From a virus (lineage: Duplodnaviria > Heunggongvirae > Uroviricota > Caudoviricetes), in IMG/VR virus record IMGVR_UViG_2671181094_000002: DNA of 38,185 nt; one strand, written 5' to 3'. Made by a program: the position numbers and the translations under genes. The notes under the pieces were generated by a model. That model searched no databases. It saw only the letters and a program-made list of their open reading frames with translations, and was not told the origin of the DNA. This document shows, piece after piece, positions 5,201 to 33,790 of the stretch. Positions within the stretch are counted from its first letter, which is position 1; each line of letters starts with the position of its first letter.

Positions 5201-5348
5201 GACGCTCCATAAAACGCTGCATACGGGCAGAAGACCGTTCTGCATCGCTGGCTGCACCATTCAGAAGGTTTTTGATACGGGGGATTTCATTTTTAAACTC
5301 TGCCGCATCAATCCCCAAATCAATGACCAGGTTGGCTATCTGGTCCAT
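2283..5348 (-). CDS. H: Tail tape measure protein H
   Basis: Long coiled-coil-rich ORF (track 2283..5378); probable start MDQIANLVIDLGIDAAEF at 5348 preceded by GGAGG; C-terminus NNDGTNGQIGPAALKVVYD resembles lambda gpH C-terminus. Confidence 0.9.
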   Translation of the reverse strand: MDQIANLVIDLGIDAAEFKNEIPRIKNLLNGAASDAERSSARMQRFMERQTQAARQTTQAASSAATAASVHAQTVEKNAQAHERMAREVEKTRQRMEALSQKMREEQAQAMALAEAQDKAAAAFYRQIDSVKQASAGLQELQRIQQQIRQARNSGGIGQQDYLALISEVTAKTRVLTQAEEEATRQKVAFIRQLKEQATRQNLSSSELLRAKAAQLGVSSAAEVYIRKMEQAGKATHSLGLKSAAARQEIGVLIGELARGNLGALRGSGITLANRAGWIDTLMSPKGMMLGGVIGGIAAAVYGLGKAWYDGQKEGEEFNRQLSLTGHYAGVTAGQLWTLSRAISGNGITQHAAAGALAQVVGSGAFRGNDIGMVARAAAQMERSVGQSVSDTINQFKRLKDDPVNAAKALDNELHFLTATQLEQIRVLGEQGRSSDAARIAMSALAEETGRRTADIDNNLNALGSTLQTLSDWWKQFWDAAMNIGREDSLDAQIASLQEKVSRAKRLPWTASSSQVEYDQQRLNDLQEKKRQKDLQDAKEQAERNYQEQQKRRNAENAALNRMNETEAARHQREIARINAMQYADQTVRDAAIQRENERYEKALASGKKKTREIRNDEATRLLLQYSQQQAQVEGQIAAARQSAGIATDRMTEAHKQLLALQQRISDLDGKKLTADEKSVLARKDELIQALTLLDVKQQELQKQTALNDLKKKTIQLTSQLAEEERAQRQQHDLDIATVGMGDQQRQRYQVQLSLRQKYQQQLEQLRRDSEQKGTYNTDDYRKAEQALTESLNRQLNENRRYWQQLEVVQGNWKNGVLRSFQDFTVDADNTAGTAEQVFSSAFSNMGNGLATFVITGKLNFKSFTSSVLSDMAKILAQATMMKSIKGIGSVLGFDLSSLSLNANGGIYQSADLSRYSGTVVNRPTFFAFAKGAGVMGEAGPEAILPLRRGADGKLGVVADIGGSGMAMFAPQYNIEINNDGTNGQIGPAALKVVYDLGKKAAADFMQQQARDGGRLSGAYR

Positions 5349-5649
5349 AACGCACACCTCCGGAAATACCTTCCCCAAGATGCATCAGTTCTTCGTCCGT
5401 TCGCTCCGGTATCCCGTTCTCTTCCGGTAAAAGGCTGAAATCAGCCACCGCAGCATCACTGCTGCCGGACACCATTCTCACGATCAATGCCTTCAGCGAG
5501 GCAAACTGCGCATCCATCCACACATCACTGAAGCTCTGCATCCGGAAATAATCGCCCCACTCACCAAGCTCAGTGGCCGACATTTCCGACAGCATCCGCC
5601 GCCAGTCTGCCCGCCGGAACTCCCGGGCAAGCCGCATGACAAACTGCAT
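5320..5649 (-). CDS. T: Tail assembly chaperone T segment (expected to be made as G-T fusion by -1 frameshift)
   Basis: ORF in -1 frame relative to G; MRLAREFRRADWRRMLSEMSATELGEWGDYF resembles lambda gpT; -1 frame is open from the G 3' end (about 5665) into this ORF. Confidence 0.8.
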   Translation of the reverse strand: MQFVMRLAREFRRADWRRMLSEMSATELGEWGDYFRMQSFSDVWMDAQFASLKALIVRMVSGSSDAAVADFSLLPEENGIPERTDEELMHLGEGISGGVRYGPDSQPGH

Positions 5650-5657
5650 TTCCCGCG

Positions 5658-6047
5658 TCAGGACTTTTCCGGCGTCAGCACCTCATGCTCCAAATCCCCG
5701 GCATTCTCAATGGCTCCCATACCGCTCAGCGACAGAACCATCTCCGCCCCCGCACCCAGGGCATCATACGACCATGTTGTAATTACGGATGCGCAAAGCG
5801 TCTCAACATCCTGAGACTGTTCCGCATTCCACAGTGAGCGGGAAACCAGCCAGGCATTGATATCCATCCCCATCCGCAGAAAAGCAATCTGTCGTTCAGC
5901 CTCCGGCAGTTCTCCCTCTTCGGCATCAAACTTTGCCGTTCGCTGCTGAACAAACGCCAGATATTCAATTCTCTGCAGCCCGGACAGCTCACTGAGCACC
6001 ACGGACTGCTTTTCATAATTAAACGTGCCCTGTTTCAGAAACATCAT
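5658..6047 (-). CDS. G: Tail assembly chaperone G
   Basis: ORF track 5658..6086; probable start at internal Met (MFLKQGTF..., lambda G starts MFLK) at 6044-6047 with GGTGGAG upstream; SELSGLQRIEYLA motif like lambda gpG. Confidence 0.8.
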   Translation of the reverse strand: MMFLKQGTFNYEKQSVVLSELSGLQRIEYLAFVQQRTAKFDAEEGELPEAERQIAFLRMGMDINAWLVSRSLWNAEQSQDVETLCASVITTWSYDALGAGAEMVLSLSGMGAIENAGDLEHEVLTPEKS

Positions 6048-8536: not shown

Positions 8537-10495
8537 TTACGCCGTACATTTCACCAGACCGCGGTGATCAACTGGCGCGACACCGGCGTCAATACGCACT
8601 TTCGTTGTCACGCCATCCACACTGAAGCCCTCCATCTGATCAATATATGGCGTATCCACACCGTTGAGATAAGCCACTTCAATTGTATCGGAGCCTTTTG
8701 ACGCAGCCAGGTAGAAGGTGGTCTGGCTGTTATCATCAAGACGAGGCTCTGCAATAACGGTCGCAAAATCTTTCACCGGGTTAATAATACCGGCGTTAAT
8801 GTCAGCCCCCTTGACACTTGAGGAGCGAATGACCTGGTTAGCAACAGACTCCATCGCCGTCGGTACCAGTACGAACGCAGGACGAATATTCAGATGACGC
8901 TCCCCCTCTTTCTGAACGCGCATCAACTGGCGGGCTTTATCCAGCGATGCCACGTCCATTGCAGCGCTCTCCAGTACGTTTGCATGTTTCGCTTTATCGA
9001 ACAGACTTACATTATCTGTGGAGATTTTCGGGTTAGACGTCAGAATGGCATAAACCAGATCGGCAATAGTGGATTTCGCCGCACGGCCCAGCTTCATCGG
9101 GACATCGGTCAGCATATTCAGATCATCATTGATAATGGCCTGACGGGTGATACTGAACAGCTCGCCATAGGTCGCCAGTGCAATAGTGGCCTGTTTATCT
9201 CCGGTGGTGACGTATTTATATTCCGCCCCTTCACGCACCTGACGCAGAGCACTGAAGCCCCCCATACCCACACGATGGGCAATTTTAAAATCAGACAACT
9301 GACCTTTCCGCGTCCACTGTTCATAGGTTTCAGGGGCATCTTCCCAGCCCTGCAGAATGGCTTTGTTCGCAACATCCAGCAGAATATTACCGAAGTCAGA
9401 CGTACTGTGTGTGAACGCCGCACCGACCATCTGCATCGGGTTATAACTGGAAACCCCAATACCCCGTTCAGTCAGTGACATACGGGCATATTCACGCAGG
9501 GTCATCCCGTTGTAGACATTATCACGTTCGGTTTTTTCAAATCCGGCACGCGCCATCAGCGCCTGGCGGATCCCGTCCCCCACAAAATTACCGTTACCGG
9601 CATAAATATGAGCCGGGGTATTTTTATTGGATGGCGTGGACTCGCGCCCCATCTCGTTCAACAGCTTTTCGCGGGCCTGCTCCAGCGAACATTCAGGATC
9701 GGCAAGACACTGAGCCTGCAGCGTCTGATAACGCCCGCCAAACATGGCAAACAGATCATTAATACCGTTTACACGCGCTTTTTGCTCTGCCAGTACCTGC
9801 GCACGGATACTGTTTTCATCCACCACGGGTGCTGCTGCCTGCACTGGCGTCCGGGAGGCTGCAGGTTCATTATCCTGTACGCGTGGAGCACTGTTACGTG
9901 GCGGAGTAATCATGTTTCGAATGGATTCCGGCATCTTTTTAAATTCCTCTGTACGTTTTGACTGAATACATGCCATTGCCTTAACGGCTGGCGTCACCTG
10001 ATCAGCAAATCCCTGTGCCAGACATTCGGCACCGGACATCCAGGTCTCATCCGCCAGCATGGCAGCAATTTCATCGGTGGTTTTCCCGGTTTTCTGTGCA
10101 TAAGCGGGTAACAGAACAGCCTCAACCTTATCGAGCAGGTCGGCATAGGTGCGCATGTCCTCCGCATCACCGCCCGTAAAGCCAAATGGTTTATGAATCA
10201 TCATGAAGGTGTTTTCCGGCATAATGACCGGGTTTCCCACCATCGCAATGACCGACGCCATTGACGCCGCCACACCGTCGACATAAACGGTAATGGACGC
10301 ACCATGTGTTTTCAGTGCATTAAAAATGGCGATGCCTTCAAAGACATCGCCACCCGGTGAATTGATATGGAGATTAATGTGGGTGATATCGCCCAGTGCA
10401 TTCAGATCACTGATAAACTGCTTCGCCGTAACACCCCAGAAACCAATCTCGTCATAAATATAAATATCCGCGTCACTCTGGTGACCAGCCTGCAT
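8537..10495 (-). CDS. Prohead protease (ClpP/S49-like) - scaffold - major capsid protein encoded in a single ORF
   Basis: ORF track 8537..10756; probable start MQAGHQSDADIYIYDEIGFWG at 10495 just after portal stop; N-terminal region has ClpP/S49-like motifs (INSPGGDV, ASMASVIA), then Ala/Gln-rich linker, then about 350 aa capsid-like domain. Confidence 0.75.
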   Translation of the reverse strand: MQAGHQSDADIYIYDEIGFWGVTAKQFISDLNALGDITHINLHINSPGGDVFEGIAIFNALKTHGASITVYVDGVAASMASVIAMVGNPVIMPENTFMMIHKPFGFTGGDAEDMRTYADLLDKVEAVLLPAYAQKTGKTTDEIAAMLADETWMSGAECLAQGFADQVTPAVKAMACIQSKRTEEFKKMPESIRNMITPPRNSAPRVQDNEPAASRTPVQAAAPVVDENSIRAQVLAEQKARVNGINDLFAMFGGRYQTLQAQCLADPECSLEQAREKLLNEMGRESTPSNKNTPAHIYAGNGNFVGDGIRQALMARAGFEKTERDNVYNGMTLREYARMSLTERGIGVSSYNPMQMVGAAFTHSTSDFGNILLDVANKAILQGWEDAPETYEQWTRKGQLSDFKIAHRVGMGGFSALRQVREGAEYKYVTTGDKQATIALATYGELFSITRQAIINDDLNMLTDVPMKLGRAAKSTIADLVYAILTSNPKISTDNVSLFDKAKHANVLESAAMDVASLDKARQLMRVQKEGERHLNIRPAFVLVPTAMESVANQVIRSSSVKGADINAGIINPVKDFATVIAEPRLDDNSQTTFYLAASKGSDTIEVAYLNGVDTPYIDQMEGFSVDGVTTKVRIDAGVAPVDHRGLVKCTA

Positions 10496-15637: not shown

Positions 15638-16117
15638 TCATCGAAGGCATTGCGTCCTGATATATTCCTGAAGCGTTCTCAGTGCTGTCTGGTCTCTGAT
15701 GATTCCGTCCCGGATACCGAGAACGTTTCGTCCAGCAACTGGAGAGAGTTCGACGGTGGCATCATTGCCCATGCCGGAGGCGCTGGAGGTTTCGGCTGAG
15801 GATGGCACAGAGCATTTTCCTTTGACGAGCACCCGACCACCATTATCAAGCTTGCGCCGAAGAGCATCATTTTTAGCTTTCGCATCAGCTAACTCCTTCG
15901 TGTATTTAGCATCGAGTGCATCAGCAGAACGCTGGCGCTGCTGCATGTCAGTAATGGTGGCGGTCGCCTGCTTCAGCTCACTGACTTTTTTATCTCGCTG
16001 TTCTTTGTAGGCGATGGCGTTATCACGGTAATGATTGACCGCCCACGACAGGCAGACGATGATGCAGATAACCAGAGCGGAGATAATCGCGGTTACTCTG
16101 CTCATTGTTGCCCCCAC
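15638..16117 (-). CDS. Rz: Spanin inner-membrane subunit Rz (i-spanin)
   Basis: 159-aa ORF with N-terminal TM segment ([16 protein letters not shown]) and coiled-coil periplasmic region, directly after endolysin gene. Confidence 0.85.
15679..15885 (-). CDS. Rz1: Spanin outer-membrane lipoprotein Rz1 (o-spanin), embedded in +1 frame of Rz
   Basis: 68-aa ORF fully inside Rz; lipoprotein signal with lipobox MVVGC, proline-rich [11 protein letters not shown] as in Rz1. Confidence 0.8.
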
Positions 16118-16599
16118 AAACAGACTTCACGCTCAATCTCACGGCGAGTCATCAGTCCTTTCCATTGATTACCGCCAGCGTATGTCCAGCGCCGTAGCTG
16201 ATCACATGCGCCTTTAATATCACCCTGGTTTATTTTGCGAAGAAGCGTCGATGTTCTGAAATTGCCAGCACCCACGTTGTAGACGAACGAGTAAAGAGCG
16301 CCGCGCGTTGTTTCCGGTATATCGACTTTGATGTACCGGTTAATTTGTCTGGCGACAGTGGCAAGGTCTTTATTCAGGAGGGCTTTGCACTCTGCTTCGG
16401 TATACGTTTTACCGGGAATGATGTCTTTTCCTGTATGCCCGTAACATACAGTCCATACACCAACTATGTCTTTGTAAGGATTATGTCTCACACCTTCCAG
16501 ACCATCGTTACCACTTGGGCCAGTGATTAACACAGATGCTATAGCAATAGCCCCGCCACCAATAGCAGCAGCAACAGCTTTTCGTAATGATGGAGGCAT
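16102..16599 (-). CDS. R: SAR endolysin (phage 21 R-type lysozyme)
   Basis: 165-aa ORF; N-terminal Gly/Ala-rich signal-arrest-release segment [20 protein letters not shown] followed by lysozyme catalytic region (E...D...T pattern), like R21 / DLP12 RrrD. Confidence 0.9.
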
Positions 16600-17387: not shown

Positions 17388-18470
17388 ATGAAAAAATTAA
17401 CAGTGGCAATTTCTGCTGTAGCTGCATCAGTACTGATGGCGATGTCTGCTCAGGCAGCTGAAATTTATAATAAAGACAGTAACAAGCTGGATCTGTACGG
17501 GAAAGTTAATGCTAAGCACTACTTCTCCTCTAATGATGCAGATGATGGTGATACTACTTATGCCCGTCTTGGCTTCAAAGGTGAAACCCAAATCAACGAT
17601 CAACTGACTGGTTTCGGTCAGTGGGAATATGAATTCAAAGGCAACCGCGCTGAATCTCAAGGTTCCTCCAAAGATAAAACCCGTCTTGCCTTCGCTGGCC
17701 TGAAATTCGGTGACTACGGCTCCATCGATTATGGCCGTAACTACGGTGTAGCATACGATATTGGTGCATGGACCGACGTTCTGCCAGAATTCGGTGGCGA
17801 TACCTGGACCCAAACAGATGTATTCATGACTGGTCGCACCACAGGTGTTGCAACTTATCGTAACAACGACTTCTTTGGTCTGGTTGATGGCCTGAACTTT
17901 GCAGCTCAGTATCAGGGCAAAAATGACCGAAAAGAAGTAACTGAAGCTAATGGCGATGGTTTCGGTTTCTCAACTACTTATGAGTATGAAGGATTCGGCG
18001 TGGGTGCAACCTATGCTAAATCTGATCGCACTAATAATCAGGTTATCTACGGTAACAACGGTCTGAATGCTTCTGGTCAAAATGCTGAAGTATGGGCAGC
18101 TGGTCTGAAATATGATGCGAACAACATCTATCTGGCCACCACCTATTCTGAAACCCAGAACATGACTGTTTTTGGTAATAACCATATTGCCAACAAAGCA
18201 CAAAACTTCGAAGCTGTTGCACAATATCAGTTCGACTTCGGCCTGCGTCCATCCGTTGCTTACCTGCATTCTAAAGGAAAAGACTTGGGTGTTTGGGGTG
18301 ATCAGGACCTGGTTGAATATGTTGATGTAGGTGCAACCTATTACTTCAACAAAAATATGTCCACTTTTGTTGACTACAAAATCAACCTGATTGATAAGAG
18401 CGATTTCACGAAAGCATCTGGCGTTGCTACCGATGATATCGTTGCTGTAGGTATGGTTTACCAGTTCTAA
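17388..18470 (+). CDS. nmpC: Outer membrane general porin, OmpC/NmpC/Lc family (prophage-borne)
   Basis: 360-aa ORF with signal peptide ...MAMSAQA|[16 protein letters not shown], porin signature and C-terminal VYQF; preceded by 570 bp AT-rich non-coding region and AAAAGGG SD; located between Q and S as nmpC in DLP12. Confidence 0.9.
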
Positions 18471-23717: not shown

Positions 23718-24732
<1,015 letters not shown>

Positions 24733-24850: not shown

Positions 24851-25756
24851 ATGCCAAATTTACCGATGGGCGGATCGCAGGGTGAATTACCCTTAGTACC
24901 TACAGTAGAAGTTGTTGCTGATGGCATTCCTATGGGGGTGCTTAATGATGGAACCCCTTATCTAACTCTTTACGGTTTAGCCAAATTATGTGGCATAGAT
25001 GAAGCACCTCTTCGAATGTTTACATCTAACTGGGAGACTGAAAAAAATAAGCCAAGAGGACAAAAAGTAGCTGCATACTTAGCTGAGAAAGGATTTAACA
25101 ACGTTGACCGACTGTATACCCGCGTCATAAATAGCTCAAACGTTGAAACACATGCTTATCCTGACTATGTTTGTATGGCTATCCTCCGTTACTACGCTCT
25201 AGATGCCACCAATTTTGATAGGTCAGTCGCAATAGGTAATTTTGTTCGCTTGGCTGAGTACACGCTTAAGCGAATGATTTATGAAAAGTCAAATTACAAC
25301 CCAAATGCTTCAATAGATATCTCATTCGAGAACTATAGAGCAAGGATTAAGCTAAACGATCAGATACCGACAACTCATTTTGCAGTATTCAGAGAGATAG
25401 CTGACATTGCCATGAACCTGATCGGAGGAGGATTCCCAATGGATGACACCACATCTTTGGATGGAAGTGTTGGAATTCACTGGGGAAAGTATTGGACAGC
25501 TAATGGGCTATCTGAGAAATTCGGGGAAAGGGTGCAGTACCCACATCTATTCCCCGAAAATTACAGGCAGTCAGCTGCAAATAAGCATATAACAGCTTGG
25601 ATTTATCCTATTGAGGCACTTGGCGTGTTCAGAAAATGGCTACACGATAATTACGCAATGGAAAAACTGCCAAATTACCTTGGGAACAAAAAGATTAGTA
25701 ATGCCTCCGAGCTATTAGAGTCGATAAAAAAACCAGCACTCCCAAATAAGCATTGA
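24851..25756 (+). CDS. Hypothetical 301-aa protein with KilA-N/Bro-N-like N-terminal domain, occupying the rexAB position downstream of cI
   Basis: ORF in same orientation as cI, 118 bp downstream, followed by intrinsic terminator; AT-rich codon usage; N-terminal segment ...TPYLTLYGLAKLCGIDEAPLRMF...HAYPDYVCMAILRYYALD resembles KilA-N-type DNA-binding folds; not RexA/RexB. Confidence 0.6.
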   Translation: MPNLPMGGSQGELPLVPTVEVVADGIPMGVLNDGTPYLTLYGLAKLCGIDEAPLRMFTSNWETEKNKPRGQKVAAYLAEKGFNNVDRLYTRVINSSNVETHAYPDYVCMAILRYYALDATNFDRSVAIGNFVRLAEYTLKRMIYEKSNYNPNASIDISFENYRARIKLNDQIPTTHFAVFREIADIAMNLIGGGFPMDDTTSLDGSVGIHWGKYWTANGLSEKFGERVQYPHLFPENYRQSAANKHITAWIYPIEALGVFRKWLHDNYAMEKLPNYLGNKKISNASELLESIKKPALPNKH

Positions 25757-26078: not shown

Positions 26079-26188
26079 AGCATTCAAAGCAGAAAGCTTT
26101 GAGTAGCGCGAAATGCAGCTGCAAGACAGCAACCGTGGAGATAAGCATCACGGCGCGTTACTCAAAGCTAACTGACAGGAGAATCCAG

Positions 26189-26512
26189 ATGGATGCACAA
26201 ACACGCCGCCGCGAACGTCGCGCAGAGAAACAGGCTCAATGGAAAGCAGCAAATCCCCTGTTGGTTGGGGTAAGCGCAAAACCAGTTAACCGCCCTATTC
26301 TCTCGCTGAATCGCAAACCGAAATCACGAGTAGAAAGCGCACTAAATCCGATAGACCTTACAGTGCTGGCTGAATACCACAAACAGATTGAAAGCAACCT
26401 GCAACGTATTGAGCGCAAGAATCAGCGCACATGGTACAGCAAGCCTGGCGAACGCGGCATAACATGCAGTGGACGCCAGAAAATTAAGGGAAAATCGATT
26501 CCTCTTACTTAG
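26189..26512 (+). CDS. N: Antitermination protein N
   Basis: 107-aa protein from internal Met of ORF 26099..26512: MDAQTRRRERRAEKQAQWKAANPLLVGVSAKPVNRPILSLNRKPKSRVESALNPIDLTVLAEYHKQIESNLQRIERKNQRTWYSKPGERGITCSGRQKIKGKSIPL.; arginine-rich motif at N-terminus. Confidence 0.95.
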   Translation: MDAQTRRRERRAEKQAQWKAANPLLVGVSAKPVNRPILSLNRKPKSRVESALNPIDLTVLAEYHKQIESNLQRIERKNQRTWYSKPGERGITCSGRQKIKGKSIPLT

Positions 26513-27067
26513 TTACTTAGATATTGGCCTTGGCTTTATCTCAATATTATATGGATCATAGCTGGCAACTAATTCAGTCCAGTAAATATCCTCAATAGGG
26601 AATAATATATGCTTCCCGTTCCATCGGGAAAAAGTTTTGTTCAACACACCAAGCTCAATCAACTCACTAATGTATGGGAATTGTTTTGATGTAACCACAT
26701 ACTTCCTGCCTTCATTAAGGGCTGCGCACAAAACCATAGATTGCTCTTCTGTAAGGTTTTGAATTACTGATCGCACTTTATCGTTTTGCATCTTAATGCG
26801 TTTTCTTAGCTTAAATCGCTTATATCTGGCGCTGGCAATAGCTGATAATCGATGCACATTAATTGCTAGCGAAAATGCAAGAGCAAAGACGAAAACATGC
26901 CACACATGAGGAATACCGATTCTCTCATTAACATATTCAGGCCAGTTATCTGGGCTTAAAAGCAGAAGTCCAACCCAGATAACGATCATATACATGGTTC
27001 TCTCCAGAGGTTCATTACTGAACACTCGTCCGAGAATAACGAGTGGATCCATTTCTATACTCATCAA
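26513..27067 (-). CDS. sieB: Superinfection exclusion protein B
   Basis: 184-aa membrane protein ORF MMSIEMDPLVILGRVFSNEPLERTMYMIVIWVGLLLLSPDNWPEY..., opposite to pL transcription as lambda sieB. Confidence 0.85.
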   Translation of the reverse strand: MMSIEMDPLVILGRVFSNEPLERTMYMIVIWVGLLLLSPDNWPEYVNERIGIPHVWHVFVFALAFSLAINVHRLSAIASARYKRFKLRKRIKMQNDKVRSVIQNLTEEQSMVLCAALNEGRKYVVTSKQFPYISELIELGVLNKTFSRWNGKHILFPIEDIYWTELVASYDPYNIEIKPRPISK

Positions 27068-28738: not shown

Positions 28739-29524
28739 ATGAGTACAGCACTCGCAACGCTGGCAGGGAAGCTGGCTGAACGTGTCGGCATGGATTCTGT
28801 CGACCCACAGGAACTGATCACCACTCTTCGCCAGACGGCATTTAAAGGTGATGCCAGCGATGCGCAGTTCATCGCATTGCTGATCGTCGCCAACCAGTAC
28901 GGCCTTAATCCGTGGACGAAAGAAATTTACGCCTTCCCTGATAAGCAGAACGGAATCGTTCCGGTGGTGGGCGTTGATGGCTGGTCCCGCATCATCAACG
29001 AAAACCAGCAGTTTGACGGCATGGACTTTGAACAGGACAACGAATCCTGCACATGCCGGATTTACCGCAAAGACCGCAATCATCCAATCTGCGTTACCGA
29101 GTGGATGGATGAATGCCGCCGCGAACCATTCAAAACCCGCGAAGGCAGAGAAATCACCGGACCGTGGCAGTCGCATCCCAAACGGATGTTACGGCATAAA
29201 GCCATGATTCAGTGTGCCCGTCTGGCCTTCGGATTTGCTGGTATCTATGACAAGGATGAAGCCGAGCGCATTGTCGAAAATACCGCATACACTGCAGAAC
29301 GTCAGCCGGAACGCGACATCACTCCGGTTAACGATGAAACCATGCAGGAGATTAACACTCTGCTGATTGCCCTGGATAAAACATGGGATGACGACTTATT
29401 GCCGCTCTGTTCCCAGATATTTCGCCGCGACATTCGCGCATCGTCAGAACTGACACAGGCCGAAGCAGTGAAAGCTCTTGGATTCCTGAAACAGAAAGCC
29501 ACTGAGCAGAAGGTGGCAGCATGA
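28739..29524 (+). CDS. bet: Bet (Red beta single-strand annealing protein)
   Basis: 261-aa [85 protein letters not shown]... Confidence 0.95.
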
Positions 29525-30201
29525 CACCGGACATTATCCTGCAGCGTACCGGGATCGACGTGAGAGCTGTCGAACAGGGGGATGATGCATGGCACAAATT
29601 ACGGCTCGGCGTCATCACCGCTTCAGAAGTTCACAATGTGATAGCAAAACCCCGCTCCGGAAAGAAGTGGCCTGACATGAAAATGTCCTACTTCCACACC
29701 CTGCTTGCCGAGGTTTGCACCGGTGTGGCTCCGGAAGTTAACGCTAAGGCGCTGGCCTGGGGAAAACAGTACGAGAACGACGCCAGAGCCCTCTTTGAGT
29801 TCACTTCCGGCGTGAATGTTACTGAATCCCCGATCATCTATCGCGACGAAAGTATGCGCACCGCCTGCTCTCCCGATGGTTTATGCAGTGACGGCAACGG
29901 CCTTGAACTGAAATGCCCGTTTACCTCCCGGGATTTCATGAAGTTCCGGCTCGGTGGTTTCGAGGCCATAAAATCGGCTTACATGGCCCAGGTGCAGTAC
30001 AGCATGTGGGTGACACAAAAAGATGCCTGGTACTTTGCCAACTATGACCCGCGTATGAAGCGTGAAGGACTGCATTATGTCGTGGTTGAGCGGGATGAAA
30101 AGTACATGGCGAGTTTTAACGAGATGGTGCCGGAGTTCATCGAAAAAATGGACGAGGCACTGGCTGAAATTGGTTTTGTATTTGGGGAGCAATGGCGATG
30201 A
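29521..30201 (+). CDS. exo: Exo (lambda exonuclease, Red alpha)
   Basis: 226-aa [68 protein letters not shown]... Confidence 0.95.
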
Positions 30202-30380
30202 CGCATCCTCACGATAATATCCGGGTAGGCGCGATCACTTTCGTCTACTCCGTTACAAAGCGAGGCTGGGTATTTCCCGGCCTTTCTGTTATCAGAAATC
30301 CACTGAAAGCACAGCGGCTGGCTGAGAAGATAAATAATAAACGGGAGGCGGTATGCACAAAGCATCTCCTGTTGAGTTAA
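30192..30380 (+). CDS. Small early protein (lambda orf61-like)
   Basis: 62-aa ORF immediately after exo, position and size as lambda orf61. Confidence 0.6.
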
Positions 30381-30544
30381 GAACGAGTATTGAGATGGCA
30401 CATAGCCTTGCTCAAATTGGAGTCAGGTTTGTGCCAATACCAGTAGAAACAGACGAAGAATTTCATACGTTAGCCGCATCTCTTTCACAAAAGCTGGAAA
30501 TGATGGTGGCGAAAGCAGAAGCAGATGAGAGAGACCCGGTATGA
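30353..30544 (+). CDS. Small early protein (lambda orf63-like)
   Basis: 63-aa ORF overlapping previous ORF end, position and size as lambda orf63. Confidence 0.6.
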   Translation: MHKASPVELRTSIEMAHSLAQIGVRFVPIPVETDEEFHTLAASLSQKLEMMVAKAEADERDPV

Positions 30545-30620
30545 CAGCCACGGAATGCATTTTTCTGGCAGCGGGCTTCATATTCTGTGTGCTTATGCTT
30601 GCCGACATGGGACTTGTTCA

Positions 30621-30842
30621 ATGACACCTCAGCAGGAAAACGCCCTTCGCAGCATTGCCCGTCAGGCTAATTCTGAAATCAAAAAAGCCAGACAGCAGTT
30701 TCCGGATAAAAACGTCGATGACATTTGCCGTAGCGTACTGAAGAAGCACCGTGAAACGGTAACGCTGATGGGATTCACACCGACTCATTTAAGTCTGGCG
30801 ATCGGCATGTTAAACGGCGTCTTTAAGGAACGGTTAACATGA
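30621..30842 (+). CDS. Small early protein (lambda orf60a-like)
   Basis: ORF track 30525..30842; probable start at internal MTPQQENALRSIARQANSEIKKARQQF. Confidence 0.5.
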   Translation: MTPQQENALRSIARQANSEIKKARQQFPDKNVDDICRSVLKKHRETVTLMGFTPTHLSLAIGMLNGVFKERLT

Positions 30843-30934
30843 AAAGCAAAATCATCAGGGAGCTACAGGCTCCTTTTTTATTGTTCGCATTCATCCTCAA
30901 GCGTATTAACCAACAATTCAGGGATTAATGGAAG

Positions 30935-31156
30935 ATGGCAGACATCATTGATTCAGCATCAGAAATTGAAGAATTACAGCGCAACACAGCAATTAAAATG
31001 CGCCGCCTGAACCACCAGGCTATATCTGCCACTCATTGTTGTGAGTGTGGCGATCCGATAGATGAACGAAGACGCCTGGTCGTTCAGGGTTGTCGGACTT
31101 GTGCAAGTTGCCAGGAGGATCTGGAGCTTATCAGTAAACAGAGAGGTTCGAAGTGA
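30935..31156 (+). CDS. TraR/DksA-family C4 zinc-finger protein (lambda orf73-like)
   Basis: 73-aa ORF with CxxC-N17-CxxC (CCECGDPIDERRRLVVQGCRTCASC) as in TraR/DksA-like RNA polymerase-binding proteins. Confidence 0.7.
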   Translation: MADIIDSASEIEELQRNTAIKMRRLNHQAISATHCCECGDPIDERRRLVVQGCRTCASCQEDLELISKQRGSK

Positions 31157-31366
31157 GCGAAATTAACTAGAAGCCAAAGATAAAATCATCGCTGAGCAGG
31201 AGAAAATCGCTAACGGAGAAAAGACAGTAAGTCAGTATATGAAAACCGCATGATATCATCAGATAAAAATCGGTCGTAAAGCGAAATATTAATACCAGAA
31301 CAAACGAGTCGAGGTAAATTATATTACCTCGATAAATTAACTAAAACTTGCCCGCTATATACTATA

Positions 31367-31969
31367 TCATTCAGTATCATCACGCGCGGTCTGTGCATAT
31401 GTCACTACCGCACCTAATATATTAATTTTCTTTTCAACATAGATAATATTATCGTACTCATAATTGCCATACGGATAGCAAATGCGAATATTCTCATGTA
31501 GATCGGGGTCATCCACCTCAGCTCCAGAACAACTTTTTGAACTACCGGAAGTATACCGATACGGTGCAACATAAGACGATGTCTCTCCAGGCAAAAAATA
31601 AGTTAGTGTCGTAAGGGGTATAATCAGAAAAAATCCAGCAAATATGCACATCCCTGCATAAACCTTAAGGTATGCTGACAGACTCTTCCAGCCTCTTTGT
31701 TTTACTATCCCCTTCTTAACCCAAAACAGAGATAACAGAAAAGCTATTCCCATGCTAAACAGAATGTAATAGTGGGATATACTCTGATTAAGAAACGTGA
31801 CCCTGTAGATATCTGCCCGCCACCAGAAGAAAAGGAAAATAAAGATCAGCCCTGAAACTGTCATGCAAATCAAATAAGGATACGAATCTTTTTTCATGTT
31901 TAGCGCCCATAAAATTTTTCCTGACCCGGACAAATTTACCATCCATTTTTTGCGCAGAAAATAGCTCAT
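31367..31969 (-). CDS. Hypothetical multi-pass membrane protein in AT-rich island (moron)
   Basis: 200-aa ORF with at least three hydrophobic helices (LICMTVSGLIFIFLFFWW; ILFSMGIAFLLSLFWV; MCIFAGFFLIIPLTTLTYFL) and a Cys/Tyr-containing soluble C-terminus; opposite strand to pL operon; start codon uncertain (M1, M10 or M25). Confidence 0.5.
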   Translation of the reverse strand: MSYFLRKKWMVNLSGSGKILWALNMKKDSYPYLICMTVSGLIFIFLFFWWRADIYRVTFLNQSISHYYILFSMGIAFLLSLFWVKKGIVKQRGWKSLSAYLKVYAGMCIFAGFFLIIPLTTLTYFLPGETSSYVAPYRYTSGSSKSCSGAEVDDPDLHENIRICYPYGNYEYDNIIYVEKKINILGAVVTYAQTARDDTE

Positions 31970-32211
31970 TACTTACTGCACAATAATACACAAAATTGCG
32001 TAAATTTTTTGCATGGATTTTAGCTCTTTCAGCCGACATTTAAGGGGTAAATAGCATTTCCTAAAAGCAACTGCACCAACCCAACAGAATGGGCTACCGC
32101 TTACGTTGAGAGCAAAAAAGTGTATAGCAGCAATGAACAGCATCCTCGCACTGACGAGGATTTCTTTTATCTGAACTCGCTACGGCGGGTTTTGTTTTAT
32201 GGAGATGATAA

Positions 32212-32379
32212 ATGCACTTCCGAGTCACAGGTGAATGGAATGGAGAACCATTCAACAGAGTTATCGAAGCCGAGAACATCAGCGACTGCTATGACCACTG
32301 GATGCTGTGGGCGCAGATAGCACATGCAGACGTAACCAATATTCGAATTGAAGAACTGAAAGAACACCAAGCCGCCTGA
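32212..32379 (+). CDS. Small protein (lambda orf55-like)
   Basis: 55-aa ORF MHFRVTGEWNGEPFNRVIEAENISDCYDHWMLWAQIAHADVTNIRIEELKEHQAA read by hand, GGAG SD upstream, ends inside a terminator hairpin. Confidence 0.5.
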   Translation: MHFRVTGEWNGEPFNRVIEAENISDCYDHWMLWAQIAHADVTNIRIEELKEHQAA

Positions 32380-32393
32380 TGGCGGTTTTTTCT
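32371..32393 (+). terminator. Rho-independent terminator upstream of xis
   Basis: gccgcc-tgat-ggcggt stem-loop followed by tttttct. Confidence 0.5.
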
Positions 32394-32418
32394 TGCGTGT
32401 AATTGCGGAGACTTTGCG

Positions 32419-32637
32419 ATGTACTTGACACTTCAGGAGTGGAACGCACGCCAGCGACGCCCAAGAAGCCTTGAAACAGTTCGTCGATGGGTACGCGAGT
32501 GCAGGATATTCCCTCCTCCGGTTAAGGATGGAAGAGAGTATCTGTTCCACGAATCAGCGGTAAAGGTTGACTTAAATCGACCAGTAACAGGTAGCCTTTT
32601 GAAGAGGATCAGAAATGGGAAGAAGGCGAAGTCATGA
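32419..32637 (+). CDS. xis: Excisionase Xis
   Basis: 72-aa ORF MYLTLQEWNARQRRPRSLETVRRWVRECRIFPPPVKDGREYLFHESAVKVDLNRPVTGSLLKRIRNGKKAKS. Confidence 0.95.
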   Translation: MYLTLQEWNARQRRPRSLETVRRWVRECRIFPPPVKDGREYLFHESAVKVDLNRPVTGSLLKRIRNGKKAKS

Positions 32638-33685
32638 GCGCCGGGATTTACCCCCTAACCTTTATATAAGAAACAATGGATATTACTGCTACAGGGACCC
32701 AAGGACGGGTAAAGAGTTTGGATTAGGCAGAGACAGGCGAATCGCAATCACTGAAGCCATACAGGCCAACATTGAGTTATTTTCAGGACACAAACACAAG
32801 CCTCTGACAGCGAGAATCAACAGTGATAATTCCGTTACGTTACATTCATGGCTTGATCGCTACGAAAAAATCCTGGCCAGCAGAGGAATCAAGCAGAAGA
32901 CACTCATAAATTACATGAGCAAAATTAAAGCAATAAGGAGGGGTCTGCCTGATGCTCCACTTGAAGACATCACCACAAAAGAAATTGCGACAATGCTCAA
33001 TGGATACATAGACGAGGGCAAGGCGGCGTCAGCCAAGTTAATCAGATCAACACTGAGCGATGCATTCCGAGAGGCAATAGCTGAAGGCCATATAACAACA
33101 AACCCTGTCGCTGCCACTCGCGCAGCAAAATCAGAGGTAAGGAGATCAAGACTTACGGCTGACGAATACCTGAAAATTTATCAAGCAGCAGAATCATCAC
33201 CATGTTGGCTCAGACTTGCAATGGAACTGGCTGTTGTTACCGGGCAACGAGTTGGTGATTTATGCGAAATGAAGTGGTCTGATATCGTAGATGGATATCT
33301 TTATGTCGAGCAAAGCAAAACAGGCGTAAAAATTGCCATCCCAACAACATTGCATGTTGATGCTCTCGGGATATCAATGAAGGAAACACTTGATAAATGC
33401 AAAGAGATTCTTGGCGGAGAAACCATAATTGCATCTACTCGTCGTGAACCGCTTTCATCCGGCACAGTATCAAGGTATTTTATGCGCGCACGAAAAGCAT
33501 CAGGTCTTTCCTTCGAAGGGGATCCGCCTACCTTTCACGAGTTGCGCAGTTTGTCTGCAAGACTCTATGAGAAGCAGATAAGCGATAAGTTTGCTCAACA
33601 TCTTCTCGGGCATAAGTCGGACACCATGGCATCACAGTATCGTGATGACAGAGGCAGGGAGTGGGACAAAATTGAAATCAAATAA
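32615..33685 (+). CDS. int: Integrase Int (tyrosine recombinase)
   Basis: 356-aa ORF MGRRRSHERRDLPPNLYIRNNGYYCYRDPRTGKEFGLGRDRRIAITEAIQANIELFSGHKHK...; overlaps xis 3' end as in lambda. Confidence 0.95.
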   Translation: MGRRRSHERRDLPPNLYIRNNGYYCYRDPRTGKEFGLGRDRRIAITEAIQANIELFSGHKHKPLTARINSDNSVTLHSWLDRYEKILASRGIKQKTLINYMSKIKAIRRGLPDAPLEDITTKEIATMLNGYIDEGKAASAKLIRSTLSDAFREAIAEGHITTNPVAATRAAKSEVRRSRLTADEYLKIYQAAESSPCWLRLAMELAVVTGQRVGDLCEMKWSDIVDGYLYVEQSKTGVKIAIPTTLHVDALGISMKETLDKCKEILGGETIIASTRREPLSSGTVSRYFMRARKASGLSFEGDPPTFHELRSLSARLYEKQISDKFAQHLLGHKSDTMASQYRDDRGREWDKIEIK

Positions 33686-33790
33686 TGATTTTATTTTGAC
33701 TGATAGTGACCTGTTCGTTGCAACAAATTGATAAGCAATGCTTTTTTATAATGCCAACTTAGTATAAAAAAGCAGGCTTCAACGGATTCA
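33686..33790. other. attL: phage P' arm, 15-bp core (ttagtataaaaaagc, 33759-33773) and bacterial arm
   Basis: Sequence downstream of int matches my recollection of the lambda attP P' arm (reverse complement) up to the core gcttttttatactaa, then switches to chromosomal sequence (cagg...). Confidence 0.8.

Follow-up and report, generated by a model that had tools for sequence, protein, structure and literature searches.

We examined the segment between orf73 and orf55/xis of a lambda-like prophage, carried on 38,185 nucleotides of Caudoviricetes DNA (IMG/VR record IMGVR_UViG_2671181094_000002; the window). BLASTN aligned window positions 29051–31168 with lambda 32498–30380 (97% identity) and positions 32142–33773 with lambda 29355–27724 (98.5% identity). 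The homology stops at 31168 and resumes at 32142, and 973 bp (31169–32141) therefore stand for lambda ea22 and ea8.5; 1,024 bp of lambda DNA have been exchanged for this island between lambda-type flanks. On the left the match ends at lambda 30380, 16 nt inside ea22 (CDS 29847–30395). On the right, a terminator scan detected + strand hairpins at 32142–32161 and 32173–32192, and an old phage 434 record (M60848) marks t-L4 at the corresponding position.

The first-pass annotation had described about 1 kb of AT-rich DNA replacing ea8.5 and ea22 at this point, and both the lambda alignment and the base composition confirm it. GC content is 0.35–0.41 over approximately 31150–32200 and 0.45–0.55 in the flanks; it is 0.384 in the island as first drawn (31157–32211), 0.39 in the gene described below and 0.498 in the whole window. 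The island itself thus stands, and the BLASTN limits replace the earlier ones. Its neighbors were also named correctly: orf73 is of the TraR-type zinc-finger class (PF01258, E = 1.6e-8), orf55 matches phrog_676, and Xis (PF07825, E = 3.9e-41) is followed by Int. The island region is present at 98.8–99.8% identity in phages 434, 2B8 and mEp332. No structured RNA in the leader or island matched Rfam at E ≤ 1. The features of the locus are as follows (window coordinates):

31153–31170, + strand: ea22 remnant (GTG start, four codons, TAG), overlapping the orf73 stop codon
31169–32141, no strand: AT-rich substitution island of 973 bp, delimited by BLASTN against lambda
31309–31332, − strand: cassette hairpin terminator from the terminator scan, TCGAGGTAA-tataat-TTACCTCGA, then CTCGTTTGTT
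31367–31897, − strand: gene for a 176-aa predicted inner-membrane protein (stop codon 31367–31369; conserved ATG 31895–31897, which is M25 of the longer ORF)
31898–31969, − strand: 24-codon N-terminal extension of the 200-aa ORF, non-coding by comparison with relatives
31933–31941, − strand: predicted extended −10 element, TGGTAAATT, 36–44 nt upstream of the conserved ATG
31973–32143, − strand: 56-aa ORF, a CDS in the phage 434 and mEp332 records, overlapping the putative regulatory repeats and tL4
31976–32003, − strand: three phased direct repeats, TTACGCA / TTGTGTA / TTGTGCA, with a 10-bp period, upstream of the predicted promoter
32138–32192, + strand: terminators acting in the pL direction (tL4 and a second hairpin), in the lambda-type DNA that flanks the island on the right

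The gene at 31367–31897 is real, is the single gene of the island and is under purifying selection. The ORF had been described as 31367–31969 on the minus strand with a 200-aa product and M1, M10 or M25 as possible starts. The ORF exists as described, and the product is 176 aa, beginning at M25. Homologs of 169–180 aa in Salmonella, Klebsiella, Enterobacter and Cedecea all start at the Met equivalent to M25; an E. coli P2-type copy lacks the M1 ATG and has an in-frame TAA in the extension stretch; in locus L076 a single nucleotide is missing at 31924, yet the 176-aa ORF is intact. Homolog starts, the upstream alignment and the locus check rule out M1 and M10, and the predicted −10 element falls within the extension. 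Against a 78%-identical homolog dN/dS is 0.12 at a dS of about 1.0, and values across comparisons range from 0.09 to 0.17. The first-pass annotation had held that interruption in close relatives would mark the ORF as spurious; in the locus check it is uninterrupted and of full length everywhere except in five loci. These are a lambdoid copy with a frameshift (L090), two disrupted P2-type copies (L100, L106), a match with a stop (L025) and a copy cut at the locus end (L107). Low GC content, overlapping alternative ORFs and the absence of a family match are what a spurious ORF in AT-rich DNA would offer, but the comparative data refute this explanation, which is almost certainly wrong: dN/dS is about 0.1 at a dS of about 1, homologs down to 36% identity keep the length, layout and motifs, the structural model is confident, and nearly every locus has an unbroken ORF.

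The 56-aa CDS of the 434 and mEp332 records is, judging from its variation, probably spurious. Four of 68 near-identical loci have single-base deletions in it (at 32090 or 32074), its polymorphic sites comprise three non-synonymous and no synonymous changes, it accompanies lambdoid copies only, and it has no family match in PADLOC, PHROGs or NCBIfam. A two-gene operon including this upstream ORF was rejected because of the frameshifts in relatives.

The gene is antisense to the pL early transcript, as first reported, and was then said to require a promoter of its own. A conserved extended −10 element and a dedicated terminator, both predicted from sequence, bear this out in part. The motif TGnTAAaTT is invariant in a seven-sequence upstream alignment of lambdoid and P2-type copies, and lies at −44 to −48 in the window and in L004, L005, L010, L012, L091, L098, L106 and L020. 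The stretch from −60 to −30 is 65–94% identical in four copies that differ at 55–71% of synonymous sites, and 50% identical in the more distant L010. A generic consensus promoter scan did not list this −10 because it has no good −35; a recognizable −35 is absent. We infer a transcription start near 31926, and likewise infer use of this promoter and expression in the lysogen.

The repeats upstream of the promoter (TTGTGCA three times, with a 10–11-bp period) are kept upstream of P2-type copies, including a group of loci (L101 type) 51% identical in protein sequence. In this group the repeats are retained while the remaining leader differs. They may be a binding site for a regulator. In the phage 434 record the same place is marked as a site fitting the CII consensus (TTGY-N6-TTGY). 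A CII-dependent promoter was considered and rejected: the TTGY pattern occurs twice in the window against 2.6 expected, which is not above chance, and no suitable −10 lies at CII spacing. At the other end, the terminator has a 9-bp stem and lies 35 nt 3′ of the stop codon. The DNA common to the window and an E. coli P2-type copy (L091) runs from 32034 to 31277 (76% identity), that is, from promoter to terminator, terminator included. By this comparison the island is an autonomous single-gene cassette in which leader, ORF and terminator travel together.

The AF2 model of the protein (pLDDT 87, pTM 0.73) has helices at residues 5–29, 38–61 and 71–101 followed by five strands within 105–171, with an extra strand (34–36) contributed by loop 1; the C-terminal domain modeled alone gave a pLDDT of 86. 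The first-pass annotation, which had suggested topology and structure prediction, had counted three or more hydrophobic helices and a C-terminal tail of about 70 aa with Cys residues. There are three hydrophobic segments, matching the three modeled helices, and the tail, with the peptide then singled out, is a five-stranded β domain of about 70 aa. Lys and Arg are concentrated at the N-terminus and in loop 2, and the C-terminal domain is net acidic; the positive-inside rule predicts that the three transmembrane (TM) segments are preceded by a cytoplasmic N-terminus and followed by a periplasmic β domain. Conservation peaks in loop 1 and the C-terminal domain and is lowest in cytoplasmic loop 2, and the predicted periplasmic domain is strongly conserved (dN/dS 0.08–0.10). 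Cys123 and Cys140 are each present in 90% or more of 39 family members, and a disulfide between them probably staples the β domain. The anatomy of the cassette and the domain layout of the protein are near certain.

Two membrane-protein classes were considered and set aside on these features. The protein is not a lipoprotein and has no cleaved signal peptide: a lipobox is absent, and the TM1 Cys follows an Ile residue and varies within the family. Class I holins have three TM segments, about 95–110 aa, N-out/C-in topology and a short charged cytoplasmic C-terminus, and are encoded in the lysis cassette. The protein here has 176 aa, a folded C-terminal domain of 70 aa and a predicted N-in/C-out topology, and the lysis genes of the same prophage sit apart, at 15638–16599.

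A census of 107 loci placed all of the approximately 68 lambdoid copies between orf73 and orf55/xis, and all of the approximately 20 P2-type copies between portal Q and gpA, in lineages of which the most distant share just 32–36% gpA identity. The lambdoid copies (434, mEp332) are nearly identical, and P2-type copies are 47–79% identical to the window protein. The gene is present in 982 of 5,426 complete E. coli genomes (~18%), always on the chromosome, O157:H7 strains among them. The Enterobacter copies are resident and syntenic in six species with a GC content like that of their flanks, and those of Klebsiella, Citrobacter and Pseudescherichia lie amid ordinary or housekeeping chromosomal genes; no defense neighbors were seen beside the chromosomal copies of these four genera. 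Neighbors vary by context, and gene, leader and terminator are constant. These comparisons trace movement of the cassette among the exo-xis regions of lambdoid prophages, the gpA-gpQ hotspots of P2-type prophages, and chromosomes. Just one locus, L005, has a YafO toxin gene in the vicinity. In Salmonella P2-type loci, ORFs of 81 and 119 aa occur upstream; they were rejected as functional partners because other loci are without them.

The earlier statement that no family could be recognized proved right for named families. Pfam gave a sub-threshold match to DUF6057 only (E = 0.18), NCBIfam no match even at E ≤ 1, and PADLOC-DB v2 (including the PDC, PD-T4/T7/lambda and Rst systems) no defense family at E ≤ 1; a profile search of the PDB had a best E of 0.46, and there was no fold match. 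The sole PHROGs match was the unannotated phrog_1416 (E = 7e-51, residues 113–200 of the 200-aa ORF). A family HMM search gave 61 clusters, whose full-length members share the layout. Database records name the protein 'hypothetical' or 'putative membrane protein' throughout, and in the full-text literature searched, Brenes & Laub 2025 (Cell Host Microbe 33:1004, PMID 40409266) apart, no functional study of the family was found.

The family has nonetheless been catalogued. Rousset et al. 2022 (Cell Host Microbe; PMC9122126, Table S5B) list 'system #4, 3 TM' as the fourth most frequent hotspot cargo, with 470 occurrences. Its representative is of the L101 type, 51% identical to the window protein over residues 1–168, and shares its length, three TMs and CSGAxVDDPDL...ICYPxGxY motifs as a single gene without a Pfam domain. 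The window gene thus has full-length homology to system #4/phrog_1416 and, like it, forms a single-gene prophage-hotspot cassette. System #4 lies between gpA and gpQ of P2-like prophages, whereas the window copy occupies the exo-xis region in a prophage of the lambda type. System #4 was catalogued outside the set that was cloned and assayed (PMC9122126).

Three comparisons with characterized proteins bear on function. The best functional analog is P22 SieA, an inner-membrane protein of 162–164 aa with three predicted TMs that is expressed from the prophage and blocks DNA injection (PMC10883804); the likeness extends to size, TM number, a promoter of its own and an orientation opposite to the neighbors. 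The two are not homologs: hhalign gave a probability of 0.2% over nine aligned columns, and the FxRYPxEAxxFNK motif is absent from the alignment. The conserved motif of SieA is predicted to be cytoplasmic, whereas the conserved part of the window protein is predicted to be periplasmic and has two Cys; SieA is confined to the gene 16–9 interval of P22-like prophages, whereas the window family occurs in exo-xis regions, gpA-gpQ hotspots and chromosomes. Short NfeD proteins (PF01957; E. coli YbbJ, B. subtilis YuaF) were also rejected, with no Pfam match to the NfeD C-terminal OB-fold domain and an hhalign probability of 0.2% against YbbJ. No SPFH/stomatin partner gene adjoins any copy in the contexts examined, and the barrel of the window protein, in contrast to NfeD, is predicted to be periplasmic with conserved cysteines. 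Finally, small proteins such as HK97 gp15, T4 Imm and the DicB type stop DNA entry at the inner membrane through the tape-measure protein or a host permease (excerpt of PMC6832061). They offer a possible mode of action for the window protein, which by the PHROGs and Pfam searches has no sequence relation to them and is larger, with a folded domain predicted to be periplasmic.

Because the gene lies in phage 434, in ~18% of E. coli genomes and in a P2 anti-phage hotspot, we propose, as the likeliest reading, protection of the lysogen at the envelope, quite possibly superinfection exclusion at genome entry by a lysogen-expressed moron. The P2-type copies fill the old/tin locus, the gpA-gpQ hotspot of P2-like prophages, where defense systems have been validated and where three of eight newly cloned systems, as well as old-tin, conferred phage resistance (PMC9122126). 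The same prophage also encodes BstA, SieB and a porin, which protect the lysogen. The cassette would be a horizontally mobile moron that combines putative regulatory repeats, a promoter of the extended −10 type, the 176-aa ORF and a terminator. Its product would be a bitopic-style inner-membrane protein with a cytoplasmic N-terminus, three TMs and a small, β-barrel-like periplasmic domain packed onto the first periplasmic loop. Being antisense to pL, the gene could be transcribed freely in the lysogen, where pL is repressed, by a promoter of its own; in lytic growth its transcription would meet opposing transcription from pL. The conserved periplasmic face may bind either a conserved host component of the inner membrane or periplasm, or the incoming phage's trans-periplasmic DNA-delivery apparatus, and genome entry would thereby be blocked without killing the cell. 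The anti-phage role and the entry block are offered strictly as a hypothesis.

Several observations weigh against exclusion. The chromosomal copies without defense neighbors agree no less well with a general envelope function, and the periplasmic domain is conserved, whereas a protein in contact with fast-evolving phage parts would usually diversify. The protein has no homology to SieA or another exclusion family, its predicted promoter is without a recognizable −35, and the family lies outside PADLOC and outside the systems assayed by Rousset et al. The moron or defense role suggested by the first-pass annotation has circumstantial support from homologs in the gpA-gpQ hotspot, which also holds non-defense cargo such as partition systems and CDT (PMC9122126). 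That mixed cargo would suit a lysogenic-conversion factor unrelated to phages, an envelope protein that directly helps the host and whose gene prophages spread; as examples, it might be an orphan immunity protein that counters a toxin (bacteriocin, CDI or T6SS) acting on the membrane or in the periplasm, or might confer stress or antimicrobial tolerance. We consider this somewhat unlikely. The resident copies outside prophages, syntenic in six Enterobacter species at the GC of their flanks and lacking defense neighbors, agree with it, as does strong purifying selection on the periplasmic domain, of the kind that a conserved ligand or target would impose. Pore-forming colicin immunity proteins, which the window protein resembles, are small, have three or four TMs and are likewise encoded on the opposite strand under a promoter of their own. 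No immunity family of Pfam or NCBIfam matched even at E ≤ 1, however, and a cognate toxin gene adjoins the gene in no context examined, and no toxin gene recurs beside it, although a remote relationship to bacteriocin immunity proteins may exist; phage-borne copies also far outnumber chromosomal ones, in loci enriched for anti-phage genes.

Two further functions are improbable. An abortive-infection effector or toxin, also raised by the first-pass annotation, would stay inactive until infection is sensed and then depolarize or permeabilize the inner membrane. Suicide effectors of defense systems are frequently membrane proteins (PMC9122126), and AT-rich cassettes of this type are reportedly often silenced by H-NS (excerpt of bioRxiv 10.64898/2026.09.05.749240). 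We disfavor such an effector because a cytoplasmic domain is lacking and the conserved residues cluster on the side predicted to be periplasmic, the cytoplasmic loop being the least conserved part. The gene is always single, its neighbors change with context and a sensor partner is absent; it is stably carried as a chromosomal gene in Enterobacter; and the protein, with just three TM helices, matched no channel- or pore-forming fold. A phage developmental function replacing ea22 and ea8.5 (in the lysis–lysogeny decision, lysis timing or induction via the envelope) is scarcely to be expected either. The cassette sits exactly in the ea22/ea8.5 slot, exo-xis genes reportedly influence lysogenization and induction (excerpts of PMC7093339 and PMC3824215), and the fit of the repeats to the CII consensus would allow expression while lysogeny is established. 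But the gene runs opposite to the pL operon, from which the exo-xis genes are expressed, the same cassette occurs in P2-like phages and chromosomes with different developmental circuitry, and the CII-type match is at chance level and without an acceptable −10.

Taking envelope protection in its most specific form, the gene may define a new family of single-gene, periplasm-acting anti-phage proteins, a proposal we regard as possible and no firmer. A disulfide-stapled barrel on three TMs would intercept genome entry at the inner membrane by binding a host entry factor or the tape-measure/ejection conduit, in a cassette shuttled between exo-xis and gpA-gpQ and domesticated in Enterobacter.

For annotation, the product is 176 aa, and the 56-aa CDS recorded upstream of it in phages 434 and mEp332 is probably no gene. 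The gene is among the commonest unannotated prophage cargo of E. coli, including that of textbook phage 434, and the locus is a clean case of a promoter-to-terminator cassette shuttling between accessory hotspots of two unrelated temperate phage families. If the product is an exclusion protein, it would represent a family of new structure with no relation to SieA, Imm, Cor or gp15, would join the few proteins that act on the poorly understood passage of phage genomes through the periplasm and inner membrane, and would affect host-range predictions for phage therapy and typing. Phage 434 and ~18% of complete E. coli genomes would then hold an unrecognized exclusion system.

The prophage is of the lambda type and lies at attB-lambda. 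The gene order around the island is bet, exo, orf60a (DUF1317), orf63 (DUF1382), a TraR-type orf73, the island, orf55, xis and int, with a ybhC-like host gene and then an aconitase-family gene beyond int. BLASTN aligns both flanks with lambda (window 29051-31168 with lambda 32498-30380 at 97% identity; window 32142-33773 with lambda 29355-27724 at 98.5% identity), and the 973 bp between the two blocks are unrelated DNA that takes the place of 1,024 bp of lambda with ea22 and ea8.5. The first five codons of ea22 remain (31153-31170), followed by TAG. The first-pass annotation had placed an AT-rich island at this position; the lambda boundaries and a GC content of 0.384, against 0.498 for the window, bear this out as a literal replacement, and only its limits (31157-32211, over which the GC value was taken) needed correction. 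The features of the island are:

31169-32141, the island as delimited by the lambda matches
31309-31332, hairpin terminator
31367-31897, minus strand, the gene, encoding a 176-aa protein
31367-31969, minus strand, the 200-aa ORF originally proposed
31973-32143, minus strand, 56-aa 'putative membrane protein' CDS annotated in phages 434 (CPT_434_35) and mEp332 (XSB40998)
31976-32003, minus strand, three 10-bp-phased TTGTGCA direct repeats
right edge of the island, two terminators oriented for pL transcription, one of them tL4 of the phage 434 record (1991)

The gene is, as had been noted, antisense to the pL early transcript. Of the 74 database relatives of the 200-aa ORF, every non-E. coli one (Salmonella, Klebsiella, Enterobacter, Cedecea; 169-180 aa, 42-71% identity) starts at the Met equivalent to residue 25 of the ORF. 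The P2-type copy of E. coli, 78% identical, lacks an ATG at the M1 position and has a TAA in the frame of the supposed extension, and one of 68 near-identical lambdoid loci carries a 1-nt deletion in the extension (31924) that leaves the 176-aa ORF untouched. The ORF is therefore a real gene, as proposed, with a product of 176 rather than 200 aa; among the candidate starts M1, M10 and M25, the homologue starts uphold M25. The upstream 56-aa ORF is interrupted by 1-nt deletions (32074 or 32090) in four of the 68 loci, has no synonymous and three non-synonymous polymorphic sites, and overlaps tL4 and the conserved leader repeats. Together with the M1 and TAA differences and the deletion in the extension, these deletions dispose of both upstream coding claims, and the 56-aa CDS annotated for 434 and mEp332 is probably spurious.

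Comparison among homologues shows that 31367-31897 (minus strand) codes for protein and is subject to purifying selection. Against L091, the E. coli P2-type copy, dS is ~1.0, dN 0.12 and dN/dS 0.12 (0.08 for the C-terminal domain alone); the lambdoid group has 10 synonymous and 13 non-synonymous polymorphic sites. A spurious ORF in AT-rich DNA, which might be found interrupted in close relatives, is excluded: among ~68 lambdoid loci the 176-aa ORF is broken only in L090 (5-bp deletion). Two P2-type copies (L100, L106) are also broken, a distant chromosomal match (L025) has a stop inside the match, and L107 is cut by a contig end.

We mapped marker proteins in 107 fetched loci to establish genomic context. 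The ~68 lambdoid copies (97-100% identity), associated with more than one integrase type, always lie between orf73 and orf55/xis; phages 434, 2B8 and mEp332 carry the gene. For the ~20 P2-type copies (47-79% identity; E. coli, Salmonella, Klebsiella) the position is invariably the interval from portal gpQ to replication gpA; they come from several P2-like lineages, with gpA identities as low as 32-36%. Chromosomal copies (36-55% identity) occur amid ordinary genes in Enterobacter, Klebsiella, Citrobacter and Pseudescherichia. The phage copies are AT-rich (GC 0.39-0.44 vs 0.45-0.54 for their loci); six Enterobacter species share one syntenic chromosomal locus, where gene GC equals flank GC, and the Enterobacter copy is a resident and apparently vertically inherited form of an otherwise phage-borne gene. 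These syntenic homologues (L007, L021-L024, L028) are 36-45% identical, and the neighbours in L007-L009 were called as LysR-regulator and GGDEF-protein genes. The gene is present in 982 of 5,426 complete E. coli genomes (915 at >=95% identity, 67 at 60-90%), every copy being chromosomal and annotated 'hypothetical protein' in all records listed.

DNA homology between the window and L091 (31277-32034 at 76%, plus 32030-32092) spans leader, ORF and hairpin terminator and ends there. An extended -10 (TGnTAAaTT, -44 to -36 from the ATG) is invariant in lambdoid and P2-type copies; it falls within the supposed N-terminal extension, so a transcript from this predicted element could not encode M1-M24, consistent with the 176-aa start. 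Further upstream, the TTGTGCA repeats recur in L004, L005, L091, L098, L101-L103 and L106, and are kept even in a 51%-identical group whose remaining leader differs. The phage 434 record names the repeat site a CII consensus (TTGY-N6-TTGY), and P2-like phages retain it too. From -110 to -30 the leader is 63-94% identical in four copies in which 55-71% of synonymous sites differ (L010, a more distant copy, reaches only ~50%); conservation is lower between -29 and -1 and in the 3' flank. A lysogen could plausibly express the gene. That the island is an autonomous mobile moron cassette is well founded: the moron reading of the first-pass annotation gains promoter-to-terminator homology with a P2-type copy and a predicted promoter and terminator of its own.

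In L091 an Ead/Ea22-like gene (8622-9005, minus strand; PF13935, 2.7e-29) lies convergent and downstream of the gene, so that lambdoid exo-xis DNA is present in a P2 hotspot of this type, a hint that the L091-type variant passed from lambdoid to P2-like phages. Beyond the Ead/Ea22-like gene, E. coli P2-like prophages carry a StbA/partition module. Other cargo alongside the gene is likewise unannotated: the Salmonella hotspots hold an 81-aa and 119-aa ORF pair (L004/L006/L010/L011/L099, about 5230-5890) and the Klebsiella hotspots a 790-aa AAA_16 protein with a 279-aa protein (L013-L015, 2281-5623); neither cargo matched PADLOC, making both candidate further systems.

Between gpA and gpQ lies the accessory hotspot of P2 that houses old and tin. 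Rousset et al. catalogued 169 systems there, obtained phage resistance from three of eight newly cloned ones plus old-tin, and encountered partition systems and a cytolethal distending toxin as well (PMC9122126). System #4 of their Table S5B (a single protein, no Pfam, '3 TM', 470 occurrences) is a member of our family, of the L101 type, and is absent from their table of tested systems (PMC9122126). A 2026 P2/P4 hotspot follow-up, in which many unknown hotspot genes score as defensive, does not name the family (PMC13586616). The gene is already catalogued, yet uncharacterised. Full-text literature searches, which did not extend to Brenes & Laub 2025 (reportedly a screen of E. coli prophages for defences against temperate phages), turned up no functional study of the family.

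That no family could be recognised still holds: the protein has one sub-threshold Pfam match, no match in NCBIfam or PADLOC, and in PHROGs only phrog_1416 (function unknown), a 90-residue profile spanning TM3 and the C-domain. For remote homology, a PDB profile search of the family returned nothing, and an exhaustive HMM search of 1.84 billion cluster representatives gave only 61 clusters, the full-length ones sharing length and layout. One hit, a giant 3,074-aa protein (P0152), matches the profile in eight stretches, best at positions 122-158 (the Cys-hairpin region, E = 2.7e-6); its Pfam matches (trimeric-autotransporter Trp-ring, filamin) are at or below cutoff and assigned to no stretch, and the similarity may reflect a common small beta-hairpin repeat, or chance. 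A scan of GTDB species representatives places the family in Enterobacteriaceae, plus one contig labelled 'Nanosynbacter' with E. coli phage DNA. This contig (L019; JARKOR010000073.1, 3,561 bp, binned 'Candidatus Nanosynbacter') bears the lambdoid segment of E. coli (protein identity 100% for the gene product and orf73, 97% for exo) and is almost certainly mis-binned or contaminating.

An AlphaFold2 model built with a 19-sequence alignment (pLDDT 87, pTM 0.73) has helices at 5-29, 38-61 and 71-101, a short strand in the first loop (34-36) and five strands within 105-171; the C-terminal 80 residues alone give the same five strands (pLDDT 86). Hydropathy concurs with three TM segments, in line with the three or more hydrophobic helices originally noticed. 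Lys and Arg cluster in the N-terminal MKKD and the loop-2 segment KKGIVKQRGWK, whereas acidic residues prevail in the C-domain; Cys123 and Cys140, on either side of a beta-hairpin, are kept in >=90% of 39 family members, very distant ones included; and the model places the loop-1 strand and the C-domain at the same end of the helices. Together these suggest an N-in/C-out topology with a disulfide-stapled periplasmic C-domain. Conservation across the 39 members peaks in loop 1 and the C-domain (YxY, CSGAxV, DPxL, IxICYPxGxY, KRSNxLG) and is lowest in the cytoplasmic loop; the functional end is predicted to be periplasmic, with no cytoplasmic domain.

The same prophage carries other lysogen-protection genes, BstA and SieB, and a porin:

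17388-18470, plus strand, full-length general porin gene (Porin_1, E = 3e-152), on the other strand from the lysis and late genes
24019-24732, cI-like repressor (HTH_3 and Peptidase_S24 domains)
24851-25756, plus strand, 301-aa BstA-family abortive-infection defence protein (PADLOC BstA, E = 3.6e-106; no Pfam match)
26513-27067, minus strand, and 26099-26512, plus strand, SieB and N antiterminator genes

The BstA-family gene occupies the lambda rexAB position just downstream of the repressor, and the SieB superinfection-exclusion protein (PF14163, 1e-29) adjoins N as in lambda. The porin is similar to prophage porins of the Lc/NmpC type and is likely another lysogenic-conversion gene.

A lysogen-expressed envelope protection function fits best, given a gene that is always single and without a sensor partner, its conserved predicted-periplasmic face, predicted own promoter and terminator and antisense position, its presence in accessory/defence hotspots of two unrelated temperate phage families, and BstA, SieB and the porin in the same prophage. 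Defence is a plausible function. Its specific form could be superinfection exclusion at the genome-entry step, a possibility we put forward tentatively, in which a conserved host entry factor or a phage conduit would be the binding partner of the periplasmic barrel; strong conservation of the barrel favours a host target. The protein is structurally unrelated to known exclusion proteins, and P22 SieA shows no homology to the family.

The main rival, which we consider rather unlikely, is an envelope function unconnected with phages, for example orphan immunity or tolerance; in its favour are the resident copies on chromosomes and the absence of diversifying selection. With no sensor partner and no predicted cytoplasmic domain, an abortive-infection effector is improbable, and a developmental role in the phage, for a gene shared by two unrelated phage families and resident chromosomal loci, equally so. 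Envelope protection of the lysogen remains the best-fitting reading of this very common gene, which a classical phage also carries and which could be tested cheaply.
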